Shown piece by piece: positions 4,678 through 37,143 of a DNA stretch of 39,001 nt. Both the position numbers and the translations under genes were made by a program. Origin of the DNA: Candidatus Curtissbacteria bacterium (GTDB lineage: Bacteria > Patescibacteriota > Microgenomatia > Curtissbacterales > GWA2-41-24); the NCBI GenBank assembly GCA_016198325.1, contig JACQIV010000014.1, positions 1 through 39,001 of the forward strand, given 5' to 3'. Each line of letters opens with the position of its first letter. Position 1 is the first letter of the stretch. The notes beneath the pieces are model-generated. The model was given only the letters and a program-made list of their open reading frames with translations, had not been told where the DNA came from and did no database searches.

Positions 4678-5499
4678 ATGAACCTGCTCAAGAGAGTGTC
4701 AACTGTCAAACGTCAACTGTCAAATGTCAAACCTGCAATGGTCACTATCCACTTTGCACTGACCACTATACTCCTCTCCGGCTGTAGCCTCCTCGGTTCA
4801 CAAAATCCTTCAGCACTTCAGGTTAAATCCACCCCCGAAGCCGCTGTCTTTCTCGATGACAAGCATATCGGTAAAACGCCGTTTTATTCCGATCAGCTTA
4901 AAGCTGGGACCCATTCCCTTAAAATTGTTGCCTCCGACTCCTCGTATTCGGAAGAAATCGGTCTTATTCCGGGCACGCTTACGGTAGTAAATAGGGAACT
5001 TTCATCGAATTTCATGGCTGCCTCAGGAGAAACCCTTTGGTTAGAACCCTCTTCCCGGGGAATATTTATAAATTCCAATCCAAATGAAGCCTCGGTTGAA
5101 GTGGACGGACAAAAGAAAGGTAAAACTCCGTATCTTTCCGAAGAAATCGAGGTGGGGGATCACAAAATTCACATATCTCGCGAAGGTTATATCACACGAG
5201 AATTTACGGTTAAAACTTCGGGCGGTTCGCGCCTGACGGCAGACGTAACCCTGGCTTCGGAACTTGCTAAAAATCCAAAAGCAGTTCCATCTCCACTACC
5301 TACAGTCCAATTAGAAATATTAAAAACGCCCCAGGGCTTCTTAAAGGTTAGAAAAGAGGCCTCACTTTCCGCACCGGAAGTCGGAAGGGTCAACTCCGGT
5401 CAAAAATATGAACTAATCCAGGAAACCAAAGATTGGTACAAAATAAATTTCGACGGAAAACAGGGCTGGATTTCCGCCCAATACGCGAAGAAAATATAA
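4678..5499 (+). CDS. Exported PEGA-domain protein with C-terminal SH3 domain
   Basis: Two PEGA repeats (S.P..A.V..D....GKTP), SH3b-like end (WYKI...GKQGWIS..Y), lipobox-like LLSGC; start could be 4738. Confidence 0.85.
   Translation: MNLLKRVSTVKRQLSNVKPAMVTIHFALTTILLSGCSLLGSQNPSALQVKSTPEAAVFLDDKHIGKTPFYSDQLKAGTHSLKIVASDSSYSEEIGLIPGTLTVVNRELSSNFMAASGETLWLEPSSRGIFINSNPNEASVEVDGQKKGKTPYLSEEIEVGDHKIHISREGYITREFTVKTSGGSRLTADVTLASELAKNPKAVPSPLPTVQLEILKTPQGFLKVRKEASLSAPEVGRVNSGQKYELIQETKDWYKINFDGKQGWISAQYAKKI
4697..4731. repeat. Heptamer tandem repeat (YGTCAAM)x5
   Basis: tgtcaac tgtcaaa cgtcaac tgtcaaa tgtcaaa. Confidence 0.85.
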
Positions 5500-5631: not shown

Positions 5632-6738
5632 GTGGCGAAAAAAAGTTCCTCAAATAAGTATTTAAAAACAAAAGTTCGTGCTATCGAGGTAAAGAAGAAA
5701 CCCCTCGCACAACTTCTAAAAGAAATGTCCCAAACAGGATTCCAAGGCAGGACACTTGCAGAAGTAGTTGATGTCTGGGAAAAGATGGCCCGTGATCCGA
5801 AAACAACCATCATACTGGGCTACGCAGGTTCACTTTCAACAACCGGCCAGTGGAAAATCATCAACTGGCTAATAGAAAACCGTTTTATTGATGTCCTGGT
5901 TGCAACAGGAGCAAACCTTTCCGAAGACATTGTTGAGGCGATGGGCAGGACCTACTGGAAGGGAAAGGTTAATGTTGACGATTACGATCTTTTAAAGAAC
6001 GACGTTAACCGCTACTACGACGTTTACGGATCCGAAATCGATTATATGGATATGACGGAATTAATTGCCGATTTTTACCTCAAATTCCTCAAGCCGGATA
6101 CCGCGTACTCCTCACGCCAACTTTTTTACCTGTTTGGCCAGTGGCTTTGGAAAAAGGGGATAAAATCAATTGTAGCAACTGCCGCCCACCACCAGGTCCC
6201 TGTTTTCTGCCCGGCAATTGTCGATAGTCCCTATGGCGACGCCGGCCTGATAGCAAAGAGTCAGGGTTTTCGGCTTATCCTCGATAACATGAAGGATTAC
6301 ACGGAATTCATGAGCATGGGCGAAAAGATCAAGCAAACTGGCGTCGTCTACATAGGCGGGGGAGTCCCAAAAGATTTTATCCAGCTTCTTGCAGTCACTT
6401 CCAATCTGATGTATCCAAACAGGGAAATTCCCGGCAGAAAACCAACTGTAACCCGTGCCGCCCGCGACAAAAAGTACATGGAAGCCTACTATTCCCATAA
6501 ATACGCAATCCAGATAACCACCGACGCGCCGCAATGGGGAGGCCTTTCGGGCTGTACTTTCGAAGAAGCGACCAGTTGGGGTAAAGAAGATATTAATGCA
6601 GATAAGGTCCAATGTTACTGTGACGCAACTATTGCCCTTCCGATCGTTACTCACGCCCTTGCAGAAGGGGTCAAAACCAAGCGCAAAGCCCCTAATTTCT
6701 CCTGGATCTTCAAAGAAGATGCCAAAGATGCCAAATGA
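5632..6738 (+). CDS. Deoxyhypusine synthase family protein (DHS / DHS-type homospermidine synthase)
   Basis: GFQG, GGGVPKDF, YAIQITTD.P..GGLSGCT.EEA.SWGK with catalytic Lys, DATIALP. Confidence 0.92.
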   Translation: MAKKSSSNKYLKTKVRAIEVKKKPLAQLLKEMSQTGFQGRTLAEVVDVWEKMARDPKTTIILGYAGSLSTTGQWKIINWLIENRFIDVLVATGANLSEDIVEAMGRTYWKGKVNVDDYDLLKNDVNRYYDVYGSEIDYMDMTELIADFYLKFLKPDTAYSSRQLFYLFGQWLWKKGIKSIVATAAHHQVPVFCPAIVDSPYGDAGLIAKSQGFRLILDNMKDYTEFMSMGEKIKQTGVVYIGGGVPKDFIQLLAVTSNLMYPNREIPGRKPTVTRAARDKKYMEAYYSHKYAIQITTDAPQWGGLSGCTFEEATSWGKEDINADKVQCYCDATIALPIVTHALAEGVKTKRKAPNFSWIFKEDAKDAK

Positions 6739-7600
6739 TATAGAGTTCCCGAGTCTCGAGCCGTTCAACTTTCTGGGTTTGGAAGACCAAACCCTGGAAA
6801 AAGCGAAAGCAGTAGTCTTTCCCGTGCCGTACAATTCAACAACCTATTGGAAGTCGGGCACCAAAGACGGCCCAAAAGCAATTATCGAAGCCTCACGTCA
6901 TATCGAACTATACGACCATGAATTTAAAAAGGACATTTCCAAAATCGGCATCTATACGCTTGCCGAACTCGAAGTTTCCAAAAATTCACCTAAAGAAACT
7001 ATTGACCGCATAACATCAGTCGTCGGTCAAATCCTAAGTAGGGAAAAGTTTCCTCTGATATTAGGCGGCGAACACTCAATCGCCCTTGGCGGAATTATGG
7101 CGGCAGCCCAAAACTTTAAAAATCTGTCAGTACTTCAACTAGACGCCCATACCGATTCAAGATTCGAATTTGAAGGGACAAAATATCACCATGGCTGCAC
7201 CATGCGCCGGGCGGTCGAAGATCTTGGTCTTTCAGTCACACACGTAGGTATCAGGTCCTCCTCGGAAGAAGAAGTAAAATTCCTGGAAAAATCCAAAAAA
7301 AACCACGTTTTCCCGGCTCCGGAACTGCCAACCGAAAAGATTATCAAAACACTAAAACCAAATGTTTACCTTACCTTCGATCTAGACGCGCTAGACACAT
7401 CCATCATGCCGGCAACAGGCACACCCGAACCCGGAGGCCTCAAATGGTATGAAACCTTGAAGTTACTAAAGACAGTTGCCAAAAGGCGCAATATTGTTGC
7501 TACCGATATCGTCGAACTAGACCCGATTCCCGGCATCCACGCACCTGACTTTCTTGCCGCTAAGTTGGCTTATAAACTTATTGGCTATAAGTTTACGTGA
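6728..7600 (+). CDS. speB: Agmatinase (ureohydrolase family)
   Basis: GGEHS, DAHTD, FDLDALD, PATGTPEPGG; start at 6719 or 6728, overlapping the DHS stop. Confidence 0.92.
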   Translation: MPNDIEFPSLEPFNFLGLEDQTLEKAKAVVFPVPYNSTTYWKSGTKDGPKAIIEASRHIELYDHEFKKDISKIGIYTLAELEVSKNSPKETIDRITSVVGQILSREKFPLILGGEHSIALGGIMAAAQNFKNLSVLQLDAHTDSRFEFEGTKYHHGCTMRRAVEDLGLSVTHVGIRSSSEEEVKFLEKSKKNHVFPAPELPTEKIIKTLKPNVYLTFDLDALDTSIMPATGTPEPGGLKWYETLKLLKTVAKRRNIVATDIVELDPIPGIHAPDFLAAKLAYKLIGYKFT

Positions 7601-7650
7601 AGCTTATTGAACAAGTATTGATAGCTTTTACTTAAACGTAAATGAAGAAA

Positions 7651-7675
7651 GTTATCCTGAGCAAGGTCGAAGGAT
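7651..7675. repeat. REP-like imperfect palindrome
   Basis: GTTATCCTGAGCAAGGTCGAAGGAT with ATCCT...AGGAT stem; shares CGAAGGAT with the 104-bp element. Confidence 0.55.
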
Positions 7676-7717
7676 GATTTTTTGGCAGCAAAACTTGCCT
7701 ACAAGTTAATAGGGTAT
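7676..7717 (+). pseudogene. Recoded remnant of the speB 3' end
   Basis: Encodes DFLAAKLAYKLIGY, identical to speB 7547-7588, with 27/42 nt identity and only synonymous differences. Confidence 0.9.
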
Positions 7718-7829
7718 GCTCTAGGACAAGACCCTCGCAAAAGAATTGTTGTTTACAAAATCGTTCTAGCCAAAAAGCGTAACCATTTTAGATATTGCTA
7801 AAATGGTTTATTCAGTGTATTATTTTTTT

Positions 7830-8987
7830 ATGTCCTCAGGTCTAAATCAGCTTCAGAGCAACCTAGAATCGCTTAAAAAGACAGCTGAAGATTTAGAGTA
7901 TTGGTCAGCAAGGGAGCTAATGCCCATGCTTGGCTACACTAATTGGGAAGGCTTTAAGACAGCCCTTAATCGTGCCAGAGAATCATGCCAACAAACAGGG
8001 CAAGTTGTTTCAGACCATTTTCGGGGCGCCCTAAAAATGGTCGATATCGGGTCCGGAACAAAAAGAGCAATCGAGGATCTACTATTAACACGTTATGCTT
8101 GTTATCTGGTTGCTCAAAATGGAGATCCCCGAAAGCCTCAAATAGCTGCGGCTCAACGCTATTTTGTTGTAAAAACACGAATGCAAGAGGTTTGGGAACA
8201 AAGGGCAATTGAAAGCAAGCGCTTGGAAGAACGAGATAAACTTAGAGATACTGAGAAAAAAATTGAGCGAACGGTTTACCAACGAGGAATTACACAAAGC
8301 TTTGAGTTTGCAACCTTTAAAAATAAACATATTGAGGCGCTCTATGGGGGAATCAATACACCTGATCTGAAAAAAAGACGAGGAATTCAAAAAGATAGGG
8401 CACTTGCAGATTTCGATACAGATGTCGAACTCAAAGCTAAAAGTTTTGCACTCGGAATGACAGATCATAACATTCGGACAAAAGATTTGGTCGGAAGAGA
8501 TAGGCTAGAACATGAAGTAATAGCGAATAGTACAGCTACAAGAAACGCACTATTAGCCAGAGGTATTATTCCTGAGAATCTTGAACCTGAGGAAGACATT
8601 AAGAAAATTGAGAAACGCAGAGCAAAGGAATTGCATGCGTTAGAGGCTACAGGATCACACAAAGCGATAGAAGAATCTTCAAGGATAAAAGAGCTTGAAA
8701 GACAATTTAAGCAAACCAACACTCAAGCACAAAACAAAATCGTTTCAAAAAGCAGACAGAAATCAAATTATGCGGGTTGTTTTAACGTCAAGCTGCCGCA
8801 AGAAGTTACAAGAGTGCATTTATCAAAACTATATGAATTATTCAGAGACAACCCAGGAATTACTACAATAATCTTGGAAGTTCCTGGAGTCAATTCTACT
8901 AGGCAATTTAAAGTTCCGTTTCAGGTGAATGTGACGGATGACGTAAAAATAAAACTTAAAAAAATATTAAATTCGTCAGAAGGATAA
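7830..8987 (+). CDS. dinD: DNA damage-inducible protein DinD (BRO-N-like) with C-terminal extension
   Basis: EYWSAREL..MLGY..W, DHF, LTRYACYLVAQNGDPRK..IA.AQ.YF; ATG at 7830 preferred over 7803. Confidence 0.88.
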   Translation: MSSGLNQLQSNLESLKKTAEDLEYWSARELMPMLGYTNWEGFKTALNRARESCQQTGQVVSDHFRGALKMVDIGSGTKRAIEDLLLTRYACYLVAQNGDPRKPQIAAAQRYFVVKTRMQEVWEQRAIESKRLEERDKLRDTEKKIERTVYQRGITQSFEFATFKNKHIEALYGGINTPDLKKRRGIQKDRALADFDTDVELKAKSFALGMTDHNIRTKDLVGRDRLEHEVIANSTATRNALLARGIIPENLEPEEDIKKIEKRRAKELHALEATGSHKAIEESSRIKELERQFKQTNTQAQNKIVSKSRQKSNYAGCFNVKLPQEVTRVHLSKLYELFRDNPGITTIILEVPGVNSTRQFKVPFQVNVTDDVKIKLKKILNSSEG

Positions 8988-9033
8988 ATAGGTGAAAAGC
9001 AGGTACAAACTTAAACAGTTGGATTGACAGCAT

Positions 9034-9074
9034 CGATACAATTTGATGGTTACAAAAACGTTTATCAAGCTAAT
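9034..9074 (+). pseudogene. Remnant of the -10 box and 5' end of the gene at 12083
   Basis: 34/41 nt identical to 12071-12111; MVTKTFIKL versus MVPKTVIKL. Confidence 0.88.
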
Positions 9075-9076
9075 GT

Positions 9077-11983
9077 CTACCTCAGTTCAACTTTAGTTTG
9101 GATATCAGTTTCTGATACTTCCAGATTAAGTTTATTGTCCGAAAAGGTAGGGACTACATAGTTATTATTCAGCTGAATATCCACAACCTCCCAAGGCAAA
9201 AAGGGTAGTCGGACAAACGTTTTTCCGCCACATCCGTTTTGCACATTTAAAGTAAATGTCTTTGCACTTTTTTCCCAATCAACAGAAATTTCCCCGCATG
9301 ATGCTTTAATGCTAGTAGATGTTTTGTCGGTAATAATCATTGGTTCAATAGTCGTACTTTTAAAACCGGGGGATGCCGGCCTAATTCCTCCAACATATGC
9401 CGGCAAAAAGTAAGTTGGCGTTCCGGCCCAGGCGTGGGTTAAAGAGCCCTGGGGACGCGAACTAATTCTTGGGTCAAAAGTCTCCCAGGTAGAGACTGCA
9501 CCGCGTCTTAACATTTCGCCCCAGTAATTATTCATTAGATTCTTAACTTGCACCGCATCCCCGAATTGTTGCATAACCATTAAATAAAACAGGTTAAAGT
9601 AACCCGTTATAAACGTCGGGTTTTTAACTCTGAGACTATCGTAAATAATTTTGGAAAATTCAGCATCAAAAGTGTTGCTCCAAAGAAAAGCAACCAGTGC
9701 ATGCGGCTCCAATTCCGCCAAATTTTTACCGGAAAGCAGTTCGCGGTTTTTTTGCACCTGTTCCTCTTTTAATTTTCCGAATTTTTCCGATTTCTGCACA
9801 TCTCTTTCTTTATACAATTCCTCTAAATCAGCCAGGTTTTTAGTATAGAAGGCTGTAAGGATTAGATTTGTATCGGAAGGCACATCTCCGGGCGAAAGAT
9901 GGTTAGTCCAGCCCGTTAAGACTTGACCAAGTTCCAAATCGGTTGGCCTGTCTTGGTTAATAAGCCCGAATGGCTCTTGCAATTTCGAAACAGCTGCTAC
10001 AATTTTCTCTGCCGTCGGAAGCAGCTGGTTTAAAGCCTCCTCATCATTGGTGTAAAGGTAGTAATCCTTCAAGAAACTGACAAAAAGAAGATTATAGGAA
10101 AGAATCGTTTGATTAAGACTTGAAGGGAATACTGTTTCGATTAAACCGGTCGGTTTCTGGCTCGAAGCATATTCATATAAAGCCTTTTTTGCCAGGTCAC
10201 GGCTATCAAGGCTATAAAAACCCATAAGCATCTCAACGTAGGCATCTCCAAGGTATTGTGAACGTTCGTGAACAAAACTATCCTCAAACTGGTTCTGCAT
10301 GGCATATTTAAGAGTATCCTCGCCTAGTCTGTAAGTTTTATTTAATAATTCGTCGGAGCTTTTAAAATCGCCGACTTTGCCGGCCGGATAACTAACGGCA
10401 AAAAATTTAACTGATGTATCCACGTCCGCATCTGGCTCAGTTGTAACTTTAATTAATCTCATACCTCTCCGGCCGAAAGTTTTATAAGTAAATTCTCCAG
10501 CTCTATCAGTAATAATTTTATCTTTCTGGACCATGCTGCTTTCCCAATCCTCAAAATACTGAGCTGTTATTGTTGTTGAACCGGAAGCTTTAAAAGTAAA
10601 TTGGGGAAAACCGGCCACGACCTTTTCAAAATCAAACCAGAGCGCCCCGTCTTTTTTGAATACTAACTTAGGAGAAATCTCGCTATATGATAACGGCAAA
10701 ATTTCTCGTGCATAAAGATTTTGTTTCTTTTCGACTAAAGCCTCTTTCGCATTTTTAAACTTAACTGCCTGAGGGGTAAAATCATATATTTCGCGATAAA
10801 GCCCGGAGTTAATTTCATGATGTTTGACCTTGGCGCTTTCAAGGTCAACCTTTTGCCATCCGGTTTGGCCTGTAACCAGCCATGTCCGGTTAGTAGATAA
10901 AGCTAATTTTAACCCTGCAATTTCATAAGAAAATTCGGCCAAAACCCCGCCCGGAATTTGTTTTTGGAAATGAGTTTCGTGGTTATAGCTATAAGCAAAA
11001 ATCTCAATTTGATTTTTCCCTTCACGAAGGAAAGAAGATAAATCGTACTCGTCAAAATAAAGCCTTTTTTCATCTATCGGTCCGGGTCCTTCTCCAACAA
11101 ATTGGCCATTTAAAAAAAGCCGATACCTGCTTTTAGCAGTAATTGTTGCTTTGGCTTGTTTTGCAAACTTACCCGGGACATATAAATTCTTTTTAAATTT
11201 AAGATATTGATCATTCGTCTGTATATCTGCCCAGATCCATCTACTCTCGCCAAACTGTGAAGTAGTTTTAACACTCAATATGCAAAAAACAAAAAATATA
11301 CCAACAAGCACAAATATTGCTGTTTTAAGTTTAAATTCAGGTCTTAACAAGGGATAAGTTAACATCAGCAGAGATAAAATAAGTAGAAAAACGGGTAAAT
11401 AGTCAAAAAAACTAATCGGAATGAAAAATAGTTGCAATTTGTTAAAAATAATATTTTCAAGTGGAGCCGACCAAATTGCTCGGCCTAACCATAATCCAAC
11501 TACGACTAATATCGAAAAATAATACAAATTATTAACCTTGTAATTTCTTTTCCATAAGATCATTATTGTCAAAATTACCGGCGTATAAATAAGACTTTGG
11601 AGTTTGTGCTGCTTAAGGTTTACAAATGTTTCAATGTAAATAAGCAAACTGGAAGCAAGAAACAACCCGGTAGACACGTCATTCTTCTTTTTAAAATGGA
11701 GAAAAGTTAACGCCCATAACGCAAAAAGCAGAGTATTCGGTAAGTATTTTATAGTTGCAATATAAGATTGGTTCTGAAGGTAAGGAATTAAAAATGACGG
11801 AAACGATGTGAACTTACTGTTTAATATAAGGGCAAGCTCAAGTAATTTTTTACTAATTGCGGAATGTTGGTAGTAAACATCGGTTGGAATTGCAAAATAG
11901 ATAAGAAGAATTAACAATACGTCAAATGCAAGTATCGCCAGTATCGGCAAGCGTAGCAACTTTCTTTGTTTAATCCGTGTCAT
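9077..11983 (-). CDS. GH78 alpha-L-rhamnosidase-like protein fused to a polytopic membrane N-terminus
   Basis: Y.LFLNG..VG.GP, FDF....AG, D...HER.QYLGD, GA.STWE, SLTHAW..TP, GIRP..PGF; about 240 aa hydrophobic N-terminus. Confidence 0.85.
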   Translation of the reverse strand: MTRIKQRKLLRLPILAILAFDVLLILLIYFAIPTDVYYQHSAISKKLLELALILNSKFTSFPSFLIPYLQNQSYIATIKYLPNTLLFALWALTFLHFKKKNDVSTGLFLASSLLIYIETFVNLKQHKLQSLIYTPVILTIMILWKRNYKVNNLYYFSILVVVGLWLGRAIWSAPLENIIFNKLQLFFIPISFFDYLPVFLLILSLLMLTYPLLRPEFKLKTAIFVLVGIFFVFCILSVKTTSQFGESRWIWADIQTNDQYLKFKKNLYVPGKFAKQAKATITAKSRYRLFLNGQFVGEGPGPIDEKRLYFDEYDLSSFLREGKNQIEIFAYSYNHETHFQKQIPGGVLAEFSYEIAGLKLALSTNRTWLVTGQTGWQKVDLESAKVKHHEINSGLYREIYDFTPQAVKFKNAKEALVEKKQNLYAREILPLSYSEISPKLVFKKDGALWFDFEKVVAGFPQFTFKASGSTTITAQYFEDWESSMVQKDKIITDRAGEFTYKTFGRRGMRLIKVTTEPDADVDTSVKFFAVSYPAGKVGDFKSSDELLNKTYRLGEDTLKYAMQNQFEDSFVHERSQYLGDAYVEMLMGFYSLDSRDLAKKALYEYASSQKPTGLIETVFPSSLNQTILSYNLLFVSFLKDYYLYTNDEEALNQLLPTAEKIVAAVSKLQEPFGLINQDRPTDLELGQVLTGWTNHLSPGDVPSDTNLILTAFYTKNLADLEELYKERDVQKSEKFGKLKEEQVQKNRELLSGKNLAELEPHALVAFLWSNTFDAEFSKIIYDSLRVKNPTFITGYFNLFYLMVMQQFGDAVQVKNLMNNYWGEMLRRGAVSTWETFDPRISSRPQGSLTHAWAGTPTYFLPAYVGGIRPASPGFKSTTIEPMIITDKTSTSIKASCGEISVDWEKSAKTFTLNVQNGCGGKTFVRLPFLPWEVVDIQLNNNYVVPTFSDNKLNLEVSETDIQTKVELR

Positions 11984-12082
11984 CGCCTGAGAGATATTAC
12001 AATTTTATCGCATGCAAAATCGTCGGCTATAGTCTCTCCTTTAATTGACACCCACCGCAAGTTCCCCCTACGATAGAATTTG

Positions 12083-12619
12083 ATGGTACCAAAAACCGTT
12101 ATCAAATTAATCGACGAAGCAATTATCCCTGCAATTCTCTTAATTTCTGCCAAGATATTTGGGTTAATCGGAGCATCACTCATCTTTGGCCTCCCATTTT
12201 CAATTCATGGTCGCAAAATACTGGCAATTTTACCCTCAGTACAATTTGCCAACTTTCAGGATTACATTGTGGCCGAAAACTATTCCAATTTGGCTATGTT
12301 TATAGCCGCAGCTGCAGGCACAATGTATATCCTTGTAAAAGCCCATTTTTTCCACGAAAGCCATATTCACCCGAAACTTCAGGCAAAGCTTGCTAAACTG
12401 AACCTGGAATCACTAATAACGCCTAGTTATCATCTTTATCACCAAGCGGCAATTTGGCTGACCTTTCTTTGGTTAACTGTTGCTTTCATGTTTATTTCTT
12501 CTATCCTAAAAATTACATATCCTCAAATAACCATAATTGCCTTTATTGTTGCCGCCAATTTTTCCTGGGTTTTCGCAATCGACGTGGAAAAAGAAATAGA
12601 GCTTTCTAGGGAGACTTGA
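12083..12619 (+). CDS. Hypothetical integral membrane protein (about 4 TM)
   Basis: Hydrophobic ORF; TAGAAT box upstream; abuts the next gene. Confidence 0.8.
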   Translation: MVPKTVIKLIDEAIIPAILLISAKIFGLIGASLIFGLPFSIHGRKILAILPSVQFANFQDYIVAENYSNLAMFIAAAAGTMYILVKAHFFHESHIHPKLQAKLAKLNLESLITPSYHLYHQAAIWLTFLWLTVAFMFISSILKITYPQITIIAFIVAANFSWVFAIDVEKEIELSRET

Positions 12620-14103: not shown

Positions 14104-15149
14104 ATCAAGCCTCCCAAAACAATAATACCGATTATCAAAATTGCAAATACTTTACCTGTTGAATTCAGGTTTAGCGCAATCGCCCCCAAAATAGCACACA
14201 GAATCCAATAAAACAAGGCAACTTGCCTTTGCGACAAGCCAAGAGATAACAGTTTATGGTGCAAATGACCACGGTCTCCCACAAGTGGCGATTTTTTCGA
14301 AGATAATCTGCGGATAATCGTAAAAACACCGTCTGTTAAAGGAACAACCATAACTAAAACAGCCGTGCCGACTTTTGCGCCCGAAAGAATTGCTAAAACT
14401 GCAACCAAAAAGCCCAAAAAATAAGAACCCGAATCACCGGGAAAAATCCGTGCAGGGGCAAAATTGAATACCAAAAAACCCAAAGTTACTGCGGCACCAA
14501 TCAGCGAAAGTAGGGAGACCATGAGTTGAGTGGGGTCGGAATAAGAATATTTAAGGCTCACTAAAAATAGGACAATTAACGCAATAAATACAATTCCCGG
14601 CATTTGCCCGTCGACTCCCGAAGAAAAATTCACCATATTAATGACCCAGACGATCCAAAGCACTGCGAATAAATCGGCAAGTACCAAAATAGAATGCGGT
14701 CCCCAAAAATCAAAAACAATTCTAAGTGTATCAAGCCTCAAGACGGAAAAATCTCCCGGCAAAACAGAAGCAATCGGGTTTGTAATAAAAGCAATTCCGA
14801 CACCGGACCCGACAACTACTATAGCTGCCAGTATTTGAGCAAACAACCTTAATCCTTTATTCAATTCGCGTCTGTCGTCAATAAGCCCGGCAAGTACCAA
14901 AATTAAACCGCCTGCAAAAATTCCAAGTAACTGCCCGCTTATCCCGACAAATAAAAGTGCTGCCAAAAAAAAGGAACAAAATAAAGCAAGCCCCCCTGCT
15001 CTTGGAATAATTGTTTTATGCAGTACTGCGGGATGTTTGTGTTTTTCAGGGTCATCAACATAACCGAATTTTTTAGCCAGATAAATCGTAATTGGAGTAA
15101 AAAGAACAGAAAAAGAAAAAGAAACCAAAAAGACTAATAAAAAAGTCAT
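14064..15149 (-). CDS. MraY/WecA/TagO family polyprenyl-phosphate HexNAc-1-P transferase
   Basis: PRAGG, GLIDD, N.VN...GVDG, FNF.PA.IF.GDSG, D..HLHH. Confidence 0.92.
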   Translation of the reverse strand: MTFLLVFLVSFSFSVLFTPITIYLAKKFGYVDDPEKHKHPAVLHKTIIPRAGGLALFCSFFLAALLFVGISGQLLGIFAGGLILVLAGLIDDRRELNKGLRLFAQILAAIVVVGSGVGIAFITNPIASVLPGDFSVLRLDTLRIVFDFWGPHSILVLADLFAVLWIVWVINMVNFSSGVDGQMPGIVFIALIVLFLVSLKYSYSDPTQLMVSLLSLIGAAVTLGFLVFNFAPARIFPGDSGSYFLGFLVAVLAILSGAKVGTAVLVMVVPLTDGVFTIIRRLSSKKSPLVGDRGHLHHKLLSLGLSQRQVALFYWILCAILGAIALNLNSTGKVFAILIIGIIVLGGLIWLHMTLPIKGQK

Positions 15150-20064: not shown

Positions 20065-20168
20065 TTATTCCGAGCGAGAAAACCCCGGCATTCATACCGG
20101 GGATGAGAGTGAATCTCGCGAAGCGAAGGATCAAAATACCACGGCCTTCAGGCCGTGCGTAGTTTATT
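20065..20168 (-). mobile_element. 104-bp miniature palindromic element, copy 1 (IS200/IS605 PATE-like)
   Basis: Identical to 22779-22882; two subterminal hairpins; TTATT at both ends. Confidence 0.85.
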
Positions 20169-20224
20169 GTTTTCAAGAATAAATATTCCTTTGAGGGATG
20201 ATGGGTAAAGAACAGAACTAACCA

Positions 20225-20495: not shown

Positions 20496-21584
20496 TTAAT
20501 AGGCGTAAGAAAGCTGTCTTCGCCAATCCTCAAAGCGTTTGACCAAGTCAATATTTTCCACCGGATACGGTTCGATCCCCAAACCGCTGAATCCGTAATT
20601 TAATAGCGCAGCCGCCGCGATTTCCCTATCTTCTATCGAATTTGCTCCCACAACAATTGCCATCAGGTTTTTGCCCTCACGGCTTGCTGTAACAATTGTA
20701 GCGTGGCCCGCTTCTTCCGTATAACCGATTTTTAACCCGTCTACACCGGGATATGTCCCCAGAAGTGCATTCCAGTTTGGCAGGTCAAATAATTTATGGT
20801 TTGCGTTGGCATCAAGCCGCAAATATTCGGAAGCAGCAATCTTTGCAATTAAAGGATAATTTGTTTTCGCGTCATTGGCAATTATCGCAAGATCGTAAAC
20901 GGTCGAATAGTGGTTGACAGAATCCAGACCGGTTGCCGTCTCAAGACGGGTGTTTGCGGCACCGATCTTCTTCAGTTTTTCGTTTACTAGTTGCATGAAA
21001 GTAGTGGTTCCGGATCCTGCTCGTTTTCCCAAATCATCGGCAATTACCTCTGTCGCGTCGTTTGCTGAAGTTAATATCGCTCCGGCGATCGCTTCACTAA
21101 GTGTTAATCTCTCCTTTTCTCTAAGTCCAAGCTTGGTTGGTATCTGCTCACTGGCATTTTTGGATACCACCAATAATTCATTTTCGGAAGCCAAATCAAG
21201 GGCAGTGATAACTGTTGCCAGCTTGGAAAGCGAAGCAGGTGCAATTTTTTCATTGAGATTGCTGGACCAAAGGACTTTGCCGGAATCTTCGTCAATTACA
21301 GCACCCGCACGGATTTGGGGTAAATTTTCAACATTTTCACTGCTTCCCGCGCCTTGCGGCTGCCAATAATCATTCCCGGTGAGCTTCTTTTTAGCATCAA
21401 AAAACGCCTCCCTCTTGTTTATTGGAACCGGTGAAAGGATAGAATTATCCTGGCTGTTTATCTGCCTGAAAACCGCAAAAGAAAGAACAAAAGCCAAAGC
21501 TATAAAAACAAGCCTCTTTTCAAAATTTAAAAAAATACTACCCTCAAATTTAAAGTTCTGCCGCATTTTAGTGAGTCTTAGCAT
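20496..21584 (-). CDS. D-alanyl-D-alanine carboxypeptidase (peptidase S11)
   Basis: PASLSK (SxxK), SANDA (SxN), GLKIGYT (KTG variant). Confidence 0.9.
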   Translation of the reverse strand: MLRLTKMRQNFKFEGSIFLNFEKRLVFIALAFVLSFAVFRQINSQDNSILSPVPINKREAFFDAKKKLTGNDYWQPQGAGSSENVENLPQIRAGAVIDEDSGKVLWSSNLNEKIAPASLSKLATVITALDLASENELLVVSKNASEQIPTKLGLREKERLTLSEAIAGAILTSANDATEVIADDLGKRAGSGTTTFMQLVNEKLKKIGAANTRLETATGLDSVNHYSTVYDLAIIANDAKTNYPLIAKIAASEYLRLDANANHKLFDLPNWNALLGTYPGVDGLKIGYTEEAGHATIVTASREGKNLMAIVVGANSIEDREIAAAALLNYGFSGLGIEPYPVENIDLVKRFEDWRRQLSYAY

Positions 21585-22902
21585 CTGCGAGGTTTATCCT
21601 GTTTTCTCCCGGAAATTTTTCAGAAAGAGTTTCCCAAAAGCTTTTTTCCCCTTCATCAAATCCCAACGCCCATATTCCGACACCCGCCAGGTTTTTCTCC
21701 TTGGCAAAATCGTACTTTAGGGAAAGCGATTTTTTATCTTCCATATAAACAACATGCCAGCCAGTCTCGTCCCAATAACCACGCCAAGAAACTTTTGCAT
21801 CATCGTCCCAGCCCCCGAGTGGAGTAGTCATCAGAAGTTGGTTACTATTAACTTTTTCCTGGGTTGTTGCAAAAGAACTTCCCCATGACCGGTCAGCCTT
21901 AGGTTGCGGGTCAACGGAAGGGTAATTCCAGCCGTAATAAGGAACTCCCATGATGATTTTGTCGGCAGGTGCTACCTTAAGAAAATCGTCTACCGCCGTC
22001 GAAACGTCGTACCAAAAAGGTCCCTTGCCGTTGTTATACCCGTAAAACGGCGCGCTCGGTCCGATTTTTTCCGAACCCGGATAGTAAAAGTCATAAGCCA
22101 TCATAAAAATCCCGTCAGTGTGTTTTGCCAAAAACCCAAGATCATAAATTTTGTTATCTTTTGCAGAAGATGCGATTACGGAAACGGTAATATAAGGATT
22201 TTGTTTTGTCTCTGCCTCCACTCTTTCCGAAAAGTAAGCAATAAATTTGGAAAAGCGGCTTCTTAAATAATCATCGGAAGGCATGAATTCAAAATCGATA
22301 TTGACCCCGTCCAGCTCGCGGTTATTCAAGATTGCAATCGTCTCCGCTGTCGTATTTTCCCAGGCTTCTTCGTCGTATAAAAATAACCTAATATCGTAAG
22401 GCTCCATCTGAGTGAGCGTTACTACCCTGCGAACATCATGTGACTTGGCTTTTTCAAATAAATTGGCGAGCTTCGGGCTTTCAAAAACTCCCCATTCATA
22501 AGAAGTCCTATCAATAGAACCGTCAGCAAAAACCGGCAGGGAAAAATAGGCAAACGTAGTTAAAGTATCCCAATCAACATTGTCCATTTTGGAAAGCGTC
22601 CAGTAAGGAGCGAAACCAAATACTTCCTGTTTTGGCACGGCAGAAGCAGCAACCGGCGGTAAAAATTTAGCGATAAACGATGGTCTTGAAACAACTACAA
22701 AACCTAAAAAAAAGATCCCGCAAACTAGGATCACAGAGGTCAAAAGCCAAGTGTATTTTCTCCGTAAGTTTTTCCGGATTATTCCGAGCGAGAAAACCCC
22801 GGCATTCATACCGGGGATGAGAGTGAATCTCGCGAAGCGAAGGATCAAAATACCACGGCCTTCAGGCCGTGCGTAGTTTATTTCTGGCAGGGAAGGTAAC
22901 AT
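21568..22902 (-). CDS. GH18 glycoside hydrolase, membrane anchored, with 33-aa in-frame element insertion
   Basis: LDGVNIDFE catalytic motif, MAYD, MGVPYYG, LAGVGIWALG. Confidence 0.9.
   Translation of the reverse strand: MLPSLPEINYARPEGRGILILRFARFTLIPGMNAGVFSLGIIRKNLRRKYTWLLTSVILVCGIFFLGFVVVSRPSFIAKFLPPVAASAVPKQEVFGFAPYWTLSKMDNVDWDTLTTFAYFSLPVFADGSIDRTSYEWGVFESPKLANLFEKAKSHDVRRVVTLTQMEPYDIRLFLYDEEAWENTTAETIAILNNRELDGVNIDFEFMPSDDYLRSRFSKFIAYFSERVEAETKQNPYITVSVIASSAKDNKIYDLGFLAKHTDGIFMMAYDFYYPGSEKIGPSAPFYGYNNGKGPFWYDVSTAVDDFLKVAPADKIIMGVPYYGWNYPSVDPQPKADRSWGSSFATTQEKVNSNQLLMTTPLGGWDDDAKVSWRGYWDETGWHVVYMEDKKSLSLKYDFAKEKNLAGVGIWALGFDEGEKSFWETLSEKFPGENRINLADAKTH
22779..22882 (-). mobile_element. 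104-bp miniature palindromic element, copy 2, in frame within GH18
   Basis: Identical to 20065-20168; removing 99 bp gives MLPSLPEIIRKNLRRKY. Confidence 0.88.
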
Positions 22903-34122: not shown

Positions 34123-37047
34123 GTGTCAACCATCCTTAAAGACCTGAACCCCAAACAAAAAGAAGCAGTAACAACCACCGAAGGCCCGCTTTTAATAATC
34201 GCCGGTGCTGGAACCGGTAAAACCACCGTAATAACCAGAAGAATCGCCTATATTATCGAAAAAAAACTAGCCAAGCCAGCCGAAATTTTAGCGCTTACTT
34301 TTACAGATAAAGCCTCTCAGGAGATGGAGGAAAGGGTAGATGCTTTGGTTCCCTACGGATATATCGATACTTGGATACACACTTTTCATGCATTCGGCGA
34401 CCGCCTGCTCCGCGACAACGCACTCGACATTAACCTTCCTCCCGATTTTAAAGTGCTTTCCCGCCCACAGCAAGTCCTTTTTTTCCAGCAAAATTTATTC
34501 CGTTTTAACTTAGACTATTACCGCCCGCTTTCAAACCCCAACAAATTTATTTCCGCCATGCTCTCGTTTCTCTCAAGACTTAAAGACGAAGATATTAGTC
34601 CCGAGGAATTTTCCAGGTTTGCTAAAAACCAACAGAAAGAGGGAAGCGATAAACAGGAAGCAAACCGGATAGAAGAGCTTGCCGGAGCTTATCAAGACTA
34701 TGAAAAATTTAAATCGGAAGCGGGAGTTATCGATTTTGGCGACCAGGTTGTCAAAACACTTAAACTTCTAAGAACCCGGGAAAGAGTTCTCAAAAACTAC
34801 CGGAAACAATTCAAATATATTCTTGTCGACGAATACCAGGACACTAACTTTGCCCAAAACGAGTTGGTTAAATTACTTGCCGTGTCACACCAAAATATCT
34901 GTGTAGTCGGTGACGACGACCAGTCAATTTACAAGTTCCGGGGTGCGGCAATTTCAAATATCCTTGAATTTGCAAAGGACTTTCCCAAAGCCAAACAGGT
35001 AGTCCTTACAGAAAATTACCGCACGAACCAGTCAATCCTAAACAGCGCTTACCGCCTGATCACAAATAACAATCCCAACCGGCTGGAAGTCCAAAATAAA
35101 ATCGACAAAAGACTTAAATCTCAAAGAGGCCAGGGTATGCCCCCTCAGGAAATTTTCACAGAAACTATATCCGAGGAAGCAGATGCGGTTGTCGAAGAAA
35201 TAGAAAAACTCATGAAAAAGAAAGTCAAAGGTTACTCCTACCGCGACTTTGCCATTCTGGTCCGTGCCAATGCCTCGGCAGATTTTTTCTTAAGAAGTCT
35301 CAATATGAAAGACATTCCCCACAAATTTATCGGATCGTCCGGACTATACCAACAGGAAGAAGTCGGCGTTCTCATTTCCTTTTTGAATGCCATTTCCAAT
35401 TTCGAAGACAGTATTAACCTTTATAACTTAATCATCTCGGATATCTACCAGATGCCTCCTCAGGAAGCGATCAAACTCTTATCCTTTGCCAAACGAAAAA
35501 CCCGCTCACTCTACTATGTATTAAAAAATCCAAAAGGGCCTTCCTTGGAAGAACTGGGGTTATCAAAAGAAGCCGGGGAAATTATAAAAAAAGTTCTCAT
35601 CGACCTTGATGAAGCGATTAATCTTTCAAGACGCGAAAAAGTCGGAAGAGTCCTGTACGATTTCCTAAAAAGGACCGATTATTTAAATACACTGACAAAA
35701 ATAGATACGGTTGATGCCCAGGTAAAAACCCAGAACATCGCCAAATTCTTCGACAAAATTAAACAGTTCGAAACTGTTGCCAAGGTAGAAACAGTTATCC
35801 AGTTTGTCGATTATTTACAAGCCCTACGGTCTGCCGGTGACGACCCGGCAACTGTTGAATTTGACCCTAACGTCGATGCGGTCAACGTCATGACTGTTCA
35901 TCAGGCAAAAGGTCTGGAATTTCCCGTCGTTTTTCTGGTAAATCTTACATCCGACAATTTCCCGACTCGCTCAAGGACTGAAGCCATCGAAGTCCCGGAG
36001 CAGATCATTAAAGAAACCTTGCCTTCCGGAGACTGGCACATACAAGAAGAACGGCGGCTTTTTTATGTTGGTGCAACCCGCGCAAAAGATCTCCTCTATT
36101 TTTCCTTTTCAAAAGATGTAGGGGGCAAAAGGCTTAAAAAAGTTTCACCGTTTGTACTGGAAGCGCTGGATAAACCGCAAATTGCCGGCACGGTTACAAA
36201 AGCATCACCTCACCAGAAGATAGAAAAATTTGCGCCCGTCGCGTTAAGAACAACCCAAACTGTACTTTTCGACGTTGATGTTCTCAAGCTCACCCAAGGT
36301 TCGATCGATGACTACCTTACCTGCGCTTTCAAATACCGCTATGTCCACCTGCTTAGGGTTCCAATCCTAAGACATCACGCGATCATTTATGGGTCTGCAC
36401 TCCATTTGGCAGTTGCCGCATTTTTAAGGTCAAAGAAAAGCGGTAACATGCTCACCCTTCCTCAAACCCTAGAGGTTTTTGAAAATGCCTGGGATTCTGA
36501 GGGATTTTTAACTCAGGAACACGAGGAAAAAAGAAAAATGCAGGGGAAGCTTGCTATGGAAGCCTTTTATAAAAGGGAAACTAATAATAAAGACATACCG
36601 GGTCTTATTGAATCTTCGTTTAAATTTTCCCTCGAAGGAGTTATGGTAGTTGGCCGTTACGACCGGCTGGACGTAAAACCGGGCTCAAAAGTTACTATTA
36701 TCGATTACAAATCTTCCGAAAACATTAATCAGGAAAGGGCAGATGCCCAGGCCGAAGAATCAACGCAACTGGCAGTCTATGCTCTGGCTTACTTTAAAAA
36801 TTATAGAATTATGCCGGGAAAAGTCCTTTTACACTTTCTGGAAAACGGTATTGAAGGCGGCTACACTCCGACAAAAAAGGATATCGAAAAAACCGAAAAA
36901 TTAATAGTAGGAACAGCAGAAAATATCACCCGCGATATTAAAAACGATTCATTCAAGGCAAACCCTAAATACTTCGGCCGCGAACCGGCCTGTGTTTACT
37001 GCGCCTATAATTCAATCTGTCCATTTTCATTATCAAAAATATCCTGA
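34123..37047 (+). CDS. UvrD/PcrA-family helicase fused to PD-(D/E)XK nuclease with Fe-S cysteines (AdnA/B- or AddA-like)
   Basis: AGAGTGKT, VDEYQD, VGDDDQSIY.FRGA, AKGLEF, EERRLFYVG.TRA; GRYDR..IIDYK; Cys in YLTC and CVYC..C. Confidence 0.93.
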   Translation: MSTILKDLNPKQKEAVTTTEGPLLIIAGAGTGKTTVITRRIAYIIEKKLAKPAEILALTFTDKASQEMEERVDALVPYGYIDTWIHTFHAFGDRLLRDNALDINLPPDFKVLSRPQQVLFFQQNLFRFNLDYYRPLSNPNKFISAMLSFLSRLKDEDISPEEFSRFAKNQQKEGSDKQEANRIEELAGAYQDYEKFKSEAGVIDFGDQVVKTLKLLRTRERVLKNYRKQFKYILVDEYQDTNFAQNELVKLLAVSHQNICVVGDDDQSIYKFRGAAISNILEFAKDFPKAKQVVLTENYRTNQSILNSAYRLITNNNPNRLEVQNKIDKRLKSQRGQGMPPQEIFTETISEEADAVVEEIEKLMKKKVKGYSYRDFAILVRANASADFFLRSLNMKDIPHKFIGSSGLYQQEEVGVLISFLNAISNFEDSINLYNLIISDIYQMPPQEAIKLLSFAKRKTRSLYYVLKNPKGPSLEELGLSKEAGEIIKKVLIDLDEAINLSRREKVGRVLYDFLKRTDYLNTLTKIDTVDAQVKTQNIAKFFDKIKQFETVAKVETVIQFVDYLQALRSAGDDPATVEFDPNVDAVNVMTVHQAKGLEFPVVFLVNLTSDNFPTRSRTEAIEVPEQIIKETLPSGDWHIQEERRLFYVGATRAKDLLYFSFSKDVGGKRLKKVSPFVLEALDKPQIAGTVTKASPHQKIEKFAPVALRTTQTVLFDVDVLKLTQGSIDDYLTCAFKYRYVHLLRVPILRHHAIIYGSALHLAVAAFLRSKKSGNMLTLPQTLEVFENAWDSEGFLTQEHEEKRKMQGKLAMEAFYKRETNNKDIPGLIESSFKFSLEGVMVVGRYDRLDVKPGSKVTIIDYKSSENINQERADAQAEESTQLAVYALAYFKNYRIMPGKVLLHFLENGIEGGYTPTKKDIEKTEKLIVGTAENITRDIKNDSFKANPKYFGREPACVYCAYNSICPFSLSKIS

Positions 37048-37143
37048 GATTGAATTACGTGAGCGATAGCGAACTTAACACTATCTGCCCCTTTTCCTTA
37101 GCTAAGGTCACCTAAACAAGGTGTTTACTATAATGTAGAAGGA

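Follow-up and report, generated by a model that had tools for sequence, protein, structure and literature searches.

Elements that enter the 3′ end of a protein-coding gene, such as e14 and phage 21 in the icd gene of Escherichia coli, carry a replacement for the end that they displace. Foreign DNA may also be taken into a chromosome with no integrase by homology-facilitated illegitimate recombination, in which one homologous anchor is combined with one illegitimate join. Here we describe a segment of a bacterial chromosome in which stubs of gene ends lie on either side of dinD, a gene for a DNA damage-inducible protein. The segment occupies positions 7676–9074 of a 39,001-nt stretch (the window), contig JACQIV010000014.1 of Candidatus Curtissbacteria bacterium assembly GCA_016198325.1. 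This organism (genome G000, of which the window is contig C29) is an ultra-small groundwater bacterium of a Microgenomates (Curtissbacteria-like) family, and its genome is a metagenome-assembled bin of 0.55 Mb in 29 contigs, 83% complete. At its left end the segment carries a second copy of the 3′ end of speB, and at its right end a second copy of the 5′ end of a conserved membrane protein gene, here called geneX. These two stubs are referred to as ghost 1 and ghost 2.

The closest known analogue, by comparison of architecture, is the C-terminal duplication caused by mobile open reading frames (mORFs) in fungal mitochondria, reported for atp6 of Allomyces macrogynus and for atp6, atp9, cox2 and nad3 of Glomus sp. 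In the excerpted text of that study (PMC3630166), the core of the host gene is followed by an inserted foreign C-terminus, an endonuclease open reading frame (ORF) and, downstream, the native C-terminus as an untranslated remnant. According to the same excerpt, the tail copies are 63.5–81% identical in bases and 91–100% identical in protein, the differences are mostly synonymous, and the inserted ORF can be in phase with the host gene (PMC3630166).

Stubs of speB and geneX on either side of dinD

The features under discussion are as follows, those of the segment and its partners first and the outer flank last.

7676–7717, plus strand: ghost 1, the stub of a second, diverged speB allele, comprising its last conserved 14 codons (translation and alignment)
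7718–7802, plus strand: continuation of the ghost 1 frame, ALGQDPRKRIVVYKIVLAKKRNHFRYC and a stop codon, ending 1 nt before the dinD ATG (translation)
6728–7600, plus strand: intact speB (agmatinase, arginase family; Pfam Arginase, 6.7e-66)
7601–7675, no strand: spacer of 75 bp, all the DNA between the two speB tail copies (read from the sequence)
7803–8672, plus strand: dinD core, with Bro-N at the N-terminus (NCBIfam NF008573 and Pfam)
8673–8987, plus strand: C-terminal extension of the dinD frame, a linker and then a stub resembling the DnaE C-terminus (about 8778–8984) with its own stop codon
9024–9074, plus strand: ghost 2, repeating the promoter-like boxes, the start codon and the first ten codons (MVTKTFIKL) of geneX
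12044–12105, plus strand: intact partner of ghost 2, with the ATTGACA box, TAGAAT box, TTG ATG and first ten codons of geneX
12080–12619, plus strand: geneX, conserved membrane protein and right anchor of a variable slot, present in 23 of 24 same-family genomes
9077–11983, minus strand: GH78 (alpha-L-rhamnosidase)-like gene, 968 residues, membrane-anchored (Pfam Bac_rhamnosid6H, 1.9e-21, with N and C domains)
5632–6738, plus strand: deoxyhypusine synthase-like gene (DHS; Pfam DS, 7.4e-87)
4678–5499, plus strand: PEGA/SH3-domain gene, left anchor of the slot (Pfam PEGA, 1.8e-21, and SH3_3, 4.2e-14)

Ghost 1 is translated as DFLAAKLAYKLIGY, and all 14 residues are the same as those of the live speB C-terminus at 7547–7588, which lie in the working tail DFLAAKLAYKLIGYKFT and its stop codon (7547–7600). 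At the level of bases only 27 of 42 positions are shared; every codon difference arising from the 15 mismatches is synonymous, the longest identical run is about 3 nt and no similarity extends beyond the 14 codons. The recoded second copy of the speB 3′ end that the first-pass annotation had placed here was therefore confirmed. Read-through from speB into ghost 1 was ruled out by five stop codons between the speB stop and the ghost, and an in-frame stop codon lies 6 codons upstream of it. Since 15 of the 42 bases have changed and no residue has, both copies must have evolved as working genes before one of them was truncated. Judged from its codons, ghost 1 is thus the end of a speB allele that was under selection until it was cut off, and no drifted duplicate.

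The search for the speB-tail motif covered the window, 11 genome loci and 80 metagenome speB loci, 92 sources in all. Only two of these hold the motif twice, the window and locus L114 of another Candidatus Curtissbacteria record (G016), which belongs to another genus, and the reversed peptide used as a control gave one match in all 92. This motif is conserved in the agmatinases of many phyla and so cannot indicate a donor, and its 14 codons are too few for a tree. G016 is the closest relative carrying speB, its gene being 71% identical to that of the window. In G016 the live speB tail is followed by a 294-residue methyltransferase-like gene, a speB-tail ghost (DFPAAKLAYKLIGYKFT, 13 of 14 motif residues) beginning 4 nt after the stop codon of that gene, 135 bp of further DNA and then geneX. 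Live tail and ghost flank the cargo, and of the two tail copies it is the ghost that remains attached to the native gene downstream. The two speB ghosts begin at the same codon, at which the conserved motif also begins.

Ghost 2 was assessed with a 48-base query (12065–12112) spanning the −10 box, TTG ATG and ten geneX codons. Its best other match in the window is at 9028, with 36 of 48 bases, compared with a maximum of 29 in 200 mononucleotide-shuffled versions of the window and 28 in the rest of the genome (about 510 kb), so that the diverged second copy of the geneX −10 box and 5′ end proposed at first pass also stands. The window's own geneX head is the closest to ghost 2, as the heads of 22 relatives share 21–31 of 48 bases with it, and a lineage-specific Lys-Thr is common to the pair. 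In a gapped alignment the repeat reaches to the ATTGACA box with a 16-nt indel, and its longest identical run is 11 nt. Ghost 2 ends 2–3 nt from the stop codon of the GH78-like gene, which is located exactly between both geneX heads and was detected in one of 41 genomes searched, G000 only. The geneX product itself had no Pfam or NCBIfam match. The pair of heads around the GH78-like gene represents either an end-replacing event at a 5′ end or a duplication at insertion. No target duplication had been seen at first pass; each ghost together with its intact partner is, however, a diverged direct repeat bracketing inserted DNA, which amounts to 75 bp at speB and to the 3-kb GH78-like gene at geneX.

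As far as the excerpted account of the mitochondrial mORFs goes, their pattern is fitted by ghost 1 (64% identity in bases, 100% in residues), by the G016 locus and by four dinD loci in other genomes (L044, L045, L051 and L074). A native end lies downstream of an inserted diverged end both in mitochondria and, by this comparison, at speB (7547–7600 and 7676–7717), and G016 is alike with the addition of a cargo gene. In contrast, there is no homing endonuclease of the LAGLIDADG or GIY-YIG type between the speB copies, which are separated by 75 bp only. The locus further differs in that it belongs to a bacterial chromosome, that dinD, a methyltransferase-like gene, a GH78-like gene or just 20–100 bp serves as the cargo, that a 5′ end (the geneX head) is affected besides 3′ ends, and that the window's dinD comes after the native speB tail and not between the tails.

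Like the prophages of icd, the locus combines an intact gene whose end is synonymously diverged and would be element-borne with a displaced partial copy at the far junction. Such elements depend on an integrase and on a core sequence that is the same in the two copies. Pfam scans of the 17 ORFs between 342 and 18505, five of which had no match at all, detected no integrase domain, in keeping with the first pass, and no transposase, endonuclease or reverse transcriptase domain. With longest identical runs of about 3 nt (speB) and 11 nt (geneX), neither pair has the identical core of attL and attR. The repeats are 42–62 nt long and 64–81% identical, which together with the lack of a transposase domain sets them apart from the target-site duplications of transposons (terminal inverted repeats were not searched). 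They also differ from the products of diversity-generating retroelements, since the mismatches are spread over all four bases and occur mostly at third codon positions, besides the first position of Leu codons, with no effect on the peptide. Homology-facilitated illegitimate recombination is similar in that foreign DNA comes to lie beside a conserved gene, and a stub is expected if the join falls inside a resident gene. The speB copies are, however, 36% diverged, far beyond what an anchor tolerates, a recurring breakpoint codon is unexpected, and a donor or anchor was not found. None of the literature matches listed linked this process to these bacteria. Natural competence has been reported for Saccharibacteria (abstract of PMC10187176).

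A variable slot, a mobile dinD and further stubs

In this family, the DNA between the PEGA/SH3 gene and geneX forms a variable slot. The two genes are 33–204 bp apart in 17 of the 22 relatives' loci that hold both and 6.6 kb apart in the window, in keeping with the hotspot suggested at first pass; larger gaps among the other five loci measure 600 bp, 1.7 kb (G025), 2.8 kb and 6.3 kb (G016). The window has the gene order PEGA/SH3, DHS, speB, dinD, the GH78-like gene (minus strand) and geneX. Within the 24 same-family genomes geneX is present in 23 and speB in one, G016, where the order is DHS, speB, methyltransferase-like gene, geneX. The order in G025 is PEGA, speB, a 139-residue gene, geneX, and that in the class-level relative G027 is PEGA, DHS, speB, UbiA. 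As geneX is found downstream of speB in G016 and G025, the two relatives with both genes, speB and geneX are syntenic wherever both exist, which settles a doubt raised at first pass, and the content between them varies each time. DHS is paired with speB in G016, in L115 and in many metagenome loci. At L140 (genome G020), a UbiA C-terminal tail ghost, GGEFLPQKLLQYLQ, occupies 1539–1598, 633 bp downstream of its gene (13 of 14 residues; synonymous divergence, pS, 0.36), in a conserved neighbourhood shared with the window.

The G+C content at third codon positions (GC3) is 0.504 in DHS, 0.46 in speB, 0.307 in dinD and 0.286 in the dinD extension, the genome mean being 0.397 (sd 0.048). DHS and dinD depart from the mean in opposite directions, so flank and core have different histories. 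The contrast between GC3-rich DHS and speB and GC3-poor dinD fits an incoming DHS–speB block, as weak evidence for it.

The dinD product scored 294.3 bits against the equivalog profile NF008573 (cut-off 242), its residues 15–278 corresponding to profile positions 7–278 of 288, and the Bro-N domain was recovered by Pfam at 1.1e-09. By blastn, nucleotide homology to other dinD loci runs from 7782 to 8639–8688. dinD is a patchy, phage-borne, mobile gene: DinD homologues at 37–82% identity are scattered over Patescibacteria, Ignavibacteria, Bacteroidota and others, 254 phage records match dinD (in 42 the match spans 80% or more of the core), and no full-length copy was found in 40 relatives. Work on the gene in E. 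coli has treated it as one of the SOS genes. Among the literature matches listed, nothing relevant to its mobility appeared, which is no proof of absence from print.

The whole dinD ORF (7803–8987, plus strand) codes for 394 residues, compared with 257–306 in 35 intact homologues and a typical length of about 270–300. The extra residues, about 105, consist of the linker and the DnaE-tail-like stub of about 68 codons. Residues ~312–389 match the last ~65 residues of ORFs of 1160–1197 residues in 24 relatives and in G000 contig C27 (36%). Because they resemble the extreme C-terminus of DnaE, the dinD frame evidently enters a third gene-end stub and uses its stop codon. The first-pass description of a speB–dinD–geneX slice thus holds for the two ends, which are speB and geneX stubs, but has to be amended for the dnaE tail that closes the dinD frame. 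dnaE was found near dinD in one of 80 dinD loci, L041 (Berkelbacteria), where dinD occupies 6001–6846 and a convergent dnaE (6884–10318) has its 3′ end 38 bp away. As the only candidate precedent for a dnaE–dinD fusion it was rejected, the genes being convergent rather than fused.

Flanking sequences of dinD were compared at 75 usable loci. Direct repeats of 33–145 bp with 81–98% identity lie on both sides of the gene in at least 12 of them (L035, L036, L040, L044, L045, L046, L051, L074, L075, L092, L097 and L110). The upstream copy ends no more than 127 bp from the dinD start and overlaps it in L040 and L045. In 10 of these 12 loci the downstream copy starts no more than 85 bp past the dinD match. 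The exceptions are L035, where it starts 568 bp after, and L040, where, like the dnaE stub in the window, it overlaps the dinD frame at its end. The repeat is the tail of one upstream gene in L044, L045 and L097, a gene that we take from its tail motif to be ComM/YifB-like, and the tail of another upstream gene in L051 and L074. These gene-tail repeats have pS values of 0.2–0.8 and non-synonymous divergences (pN) of 0–0.08.

Stubs of this kind recur in G000. The last and first 20 residues of 617 crudely called genes were compared with the six-frame translation of 1.5 kb on each side of the gene (2414 tests), with the following numbers of matches.

Score at least 50: real 13, reversed 0, shuffled 0
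Score at least 45: real 15, reversed 0, shuffled 1
Score at least 40: real 26, reversed 2, shuffled 8

At the highest threshold, terminal matches near their own gene are therefore more frequent than in the shuffled controls that had been called for at first pass. Eight of the 13 are intergenic and beside their own gene, and five fall in neighbouring paralogues or repeat-bearing ORFs. Codon-by-codon comparison of 14 candidate stubs from intergenic DNA beside their own gene gave saturated synonymous divergence (pS of 0.71–1.31) with pN of 0–0.29 for 13 and an exact repeat for one. Tails of rplL, of an ftsZ-like gene and of six more genes are among them, as are the heads of efp and of two more. 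Recoded gene-end stubs are present at about ten further places in G000. The same scan gave four weak intergenic matches only on 0.70 Mb of mixed metagenome contigs, and the G016 ghost and the UbiA-tail ghost of L140 on 0.25 Mb of relatives' loci.

Within the window, a recoded tail ghost of the 974-residue gene 34123–37047 was observed at 37053–37112 (plus strand), about 30 nt past the real stop, reading NTICPFSLAKVT and a stop against NSICPFSLSKIS and a stop (pS 1.05, pN 0.09). At 20129–20188 (minus strand) there is an exact 39-nt (13-codon) repeat, INYARPEGRGILI, of the 5′ end of gene 21568–22902 (minus strand); it holds a GGCC-centred palindrome and, unlike the other ghosts, is base-identical to its partner. 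Recoded start ghosts upstream of their own gene, mirroring ghost 2, were seen in G000 at C14 1501–1560, C1 6201–6260 and C4 26964–27023, for efp (MISVTDLRSDAVF), a glycosyltransferase-like gene (MKVALVHDY) and a membrane protein.

The most recurrent case is rplL, which carries a ghost of its last 21 codons 60–85 nt past the real stop in 8 of 29 loci (G000:C7 636–779, or L224, with L236, L237, L238, L240, L241, L243 and L244), from genomes G000, G003, G006, G007, G015, G017, G018 and G025. The ghost peptide KETANEAKTKLEAAGAKVELK is kept across genera, with base differences at third codon positions, and all eight ghosts begin at the same codon. In ghost-free genomes such as G008, G009 and G014 the rplL stop codon is followed by the terminator AAAACGACTAACG...TTAGTCGTTTTT, and in G003, G006 and G017 this terminator comes after the stop codon of the ghost. 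The insert thus consists of a recoded tail, a stop codon and a hairpin spacer, the ghost being the native end. In G025 the ghost has an apparent 1-nt insertion, as in a decaying relic. That the ghosts are independent small ORFs was rejected, as those at rplL in G003 and G017 are without an in-frame start codon. No Rfam family was matched at the rplL spacer at E values up to 1, apart from the L10 leaders upstream.

The rplL spacers belong to a family of small hairpin elements, YTTGCGGTCCTC...CTGCGGGCCTAAA. Further copies in G000 are located at C6 6053–6093, C15 10060–10092, C5 14373–14406 and 14430–14464, C25 4066–4095 and C28 3664–3729. Most lie between a live gene tail and a ghost tail; the C6 copy is in frame inside an ORF, C25 has two successive ghost tails, and at C5 the order is tail, element, tail, element, tail, two of the tail copies being base-identical over 22 nt (about 14400–14490). 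A shared hairpin element at the window's ghosts was rejected, since the nhmmer profile recovered 5–6 copies elsewhere in G000 and none in the window; the 75-bp speB spacer likewise gave no match to the profile hidden Markov model of the element and has a weak predicted fold (−9.7 kcal/mol). The motif C[CT]TTGCG, at 148 sites against 80 expected, is mostly inside called ORFs and was uninformative.

Possible origins of the segment

We give about an even chance to the reading in which 7676–9074 is older content of the slot, both of its original gene ends having been displaced by later insertions. That content would comprise four pieces: the 3′ end of a speB allele (ghost 1), the dinD cassette, a dnaE-tail relic fused to it in frame, which may descend from a former neighbour of dinD, and the 5′ end of geneX (ghost 2). 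Later on, two insertions would each have entered a gene immediately inside one of its ends while supplying a further copy of that end, and would thereby have kept the gene intact and left its original end as a stub. On the speB side the incoming DNA would end 75 bp past its own stop codon and could be a short tail patch or the whole DHS–speB block; on the geneX side it would be the GH78-like gene with the promoter and first ten geneX codons. No integrase would be involved. Recombination between diverged homologues could have paired on the side of the gene, with the other join out of register or illegitimate, and selection would act as a filter in which the survivors are the products with an intact gene. 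The data show the stubs and their recoding, the hotspot, the mobility of dinD, its flanking repeats at other loci and the recurrence of stubs; both this order of events and this recombination mechanism are what we infer. Because of the polarity seen in G016 and at rplL, ghost 1 is most simply taken as the original speB end. The first-pass annotation had offered either import or an old resident whose flanking genes were overwritten; the evidence leans to the old resident, by way of short end-replacing insertions rather than the overwriting of whole genes.

Several points weigh against this scenario. Neither the earlier state speB′–dinD–geneX′ nor either empty site was present in any genome searched, and G000 is the only sampled member of its genus. 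The polarity at speB is assigned by analogy, from G016 and rplL. The speB tails, at 64% identity, are too diverged for ordinary RecA pairing, so any anchor would have lain elsewhere. That the G000 and G016 speB ghosts begin at the same codon is not predicted by random illegitimate joins, even though the motif starts there too. The six rplL ghosts outside G000 (G025 aside) keep the peptide almost perfectly across genera, which is puzzling in neutral relics, unless these arose recently or are renewed through recombination. At ghost 2 the six coding differences (four synonymous, two not) are accompanied by promoter changes, and this stub could equally be a target duplication made at insertion that has since drifted. 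The exact 22-nt tail duplication at C5 indicates that duplication at the moment of insertion also occurs in G000.

Somewhat unlikely, in our view, is that the segment was imported as a slice, a 1.4-kb fragment of a speB′–dinD–geneX′ chromosome joined illegitimately at both ends between the resident speB (with its 75 bp) and the GH78-like gene, the ghosts being ragged donor ends. A single event would then account for both ghosts, whose divergences from their intact partners are not clearly different (15 of 42 and 12 of 48 mismatches), and the part that came in would be the one that is most plainly mobile and odd in composition, dinD and its extension lying below the mean GC3 and full-length dinD being missing from the 40 relatives. 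The ghost 1 frame also reaches within 1 nt of the dinD ATG, as it might between tightly packed donor neighbours. An insertion free of homology would, however, have to hit by chance the one interval orthologous to its origin, and in both the G016 and the rplL cases the native copy is the ghost. The GH78-like gene being unique to G000, a resident speB–GH78–geneX backbone is no more ancestral than the alternative. The donor is also missing: the chromosome with the order speB–dinD–geneX that was postulated at first pass was not encountered in 80 dinD loci, 9 genome speB loci and 80 metagenome speB loci. In the dinD loci none of speB, geneX, PEGA or the GH78-like gene was found within 6 kb, dinD was in none of the speB loci, and geneX was near speB in only one of them, L114.

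We consider it less likely still that the ghosts arose in situ, as target-site or tandem duplications that were identical at the time of insertion and mutated later. The exact duplication flanking the hairpin element at C5 is a precedent within the same genome, and ghost 2 shares with its partner 36 of 48 bases, non-coding bases included. This account fails at ghost 1, whose 15 silent changes could not be produced by untranslated drift, as about three quarters of random changes would alter the peptide, and which has no similarity to speB beyond its 14 codons. Recoding was likewise found in 13 of the 14 other stubs examined.

A homing-type cassette, in which DinD or a nuclease acting in trans would cut conserved gene ends and repair would copy in the cassette with a recoded, cut-resistant end, is improbable. 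The succession of core, inserted tail, ORF and native tail around dinD in other genomes does match the mitochondrial cases (about 64% base identity of the tails, with synonymous changes) as excerpted, and in favour of the idea both speB ghosts begin at one codon, as do all eight rplL ghosts. The AlphaFold model of DinD (mean pLDDT 82.3, with low confidence in the C-terminal extension) argues against it: in the Foldseek PDB library, the only library searched, its sole match was DdrC (E 2.3e-06, probability 1.00, 14% identity, TM 0.46 on the target), so that DinD as a nuclease was rejected at the level of a predicted fold. DdrC is a DNA-binding protein of the Deinococcus DNA-damage response. No endonuclease gene is present in the window's island either, and the window's dinD is not between the two speB tails.

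That two related populations were joined end to end during assembly, as a bin of this kind might suggest, can be dismissed, since in four samples unscaffolded contigs run through each of the junctions with 0 differences and like architecture is seen in independent assemblies of other genera. These Logan contigs, from four groundwater runs of one study (possibly the source study), cover 6500–9207, 6500–11348, 6500–8829, 7297–8077, 8401–10966, 11039–12218 and 11471–12600, so that each junction lies inside one single contig. The question of a chimeric assembly, raised at first pass, is answered in the negative by this contig-level evidence.

Gene ends as possible points of entry in ultra-small bacteria

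Beyond the window, we regard it as possible, and put it forward tentatively, that these ultra-small bacteria take in DNA at gene ends by a general, integrase-free route, in which the incoming piece brings a recoded end and the original end is left as a ghost, and that dinD is a widespread selfish passenger using host tails as homology arms. The cargo would be dinD, a methyltransferase, a glycosidase or a hairpin element of 36–85 nt, and the recoded ends would be of 10–70 codons. If true, this would be the bacterial-chromosome counterpart of the 'C-terminal swapping' by mobile ORFs in mitochondria, without a resident homing endonuclease. Conserved genes of minimal genomes (rplL, efp, an ftsZ-like gene and speB) would be routinely entered by foreign DNA and remain unbroken.

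That dinD is a mobile passenger is suggested by its flanking repeats in many phyla and by its occurrence in phages and satellites, and this status bears on its function. Gene callers will take such stubs for small ORFs or for extensions of genes, and the 394-residue 'dinD' is a fusion with a dnaE remnant. If the stubs are the footprints of end-replacing insertions, each ghost would mark one event, its breakpoint and the divergence of the partner, and together they would allow gene flow to be read and dated in organisms that are not amenable to cultivation.

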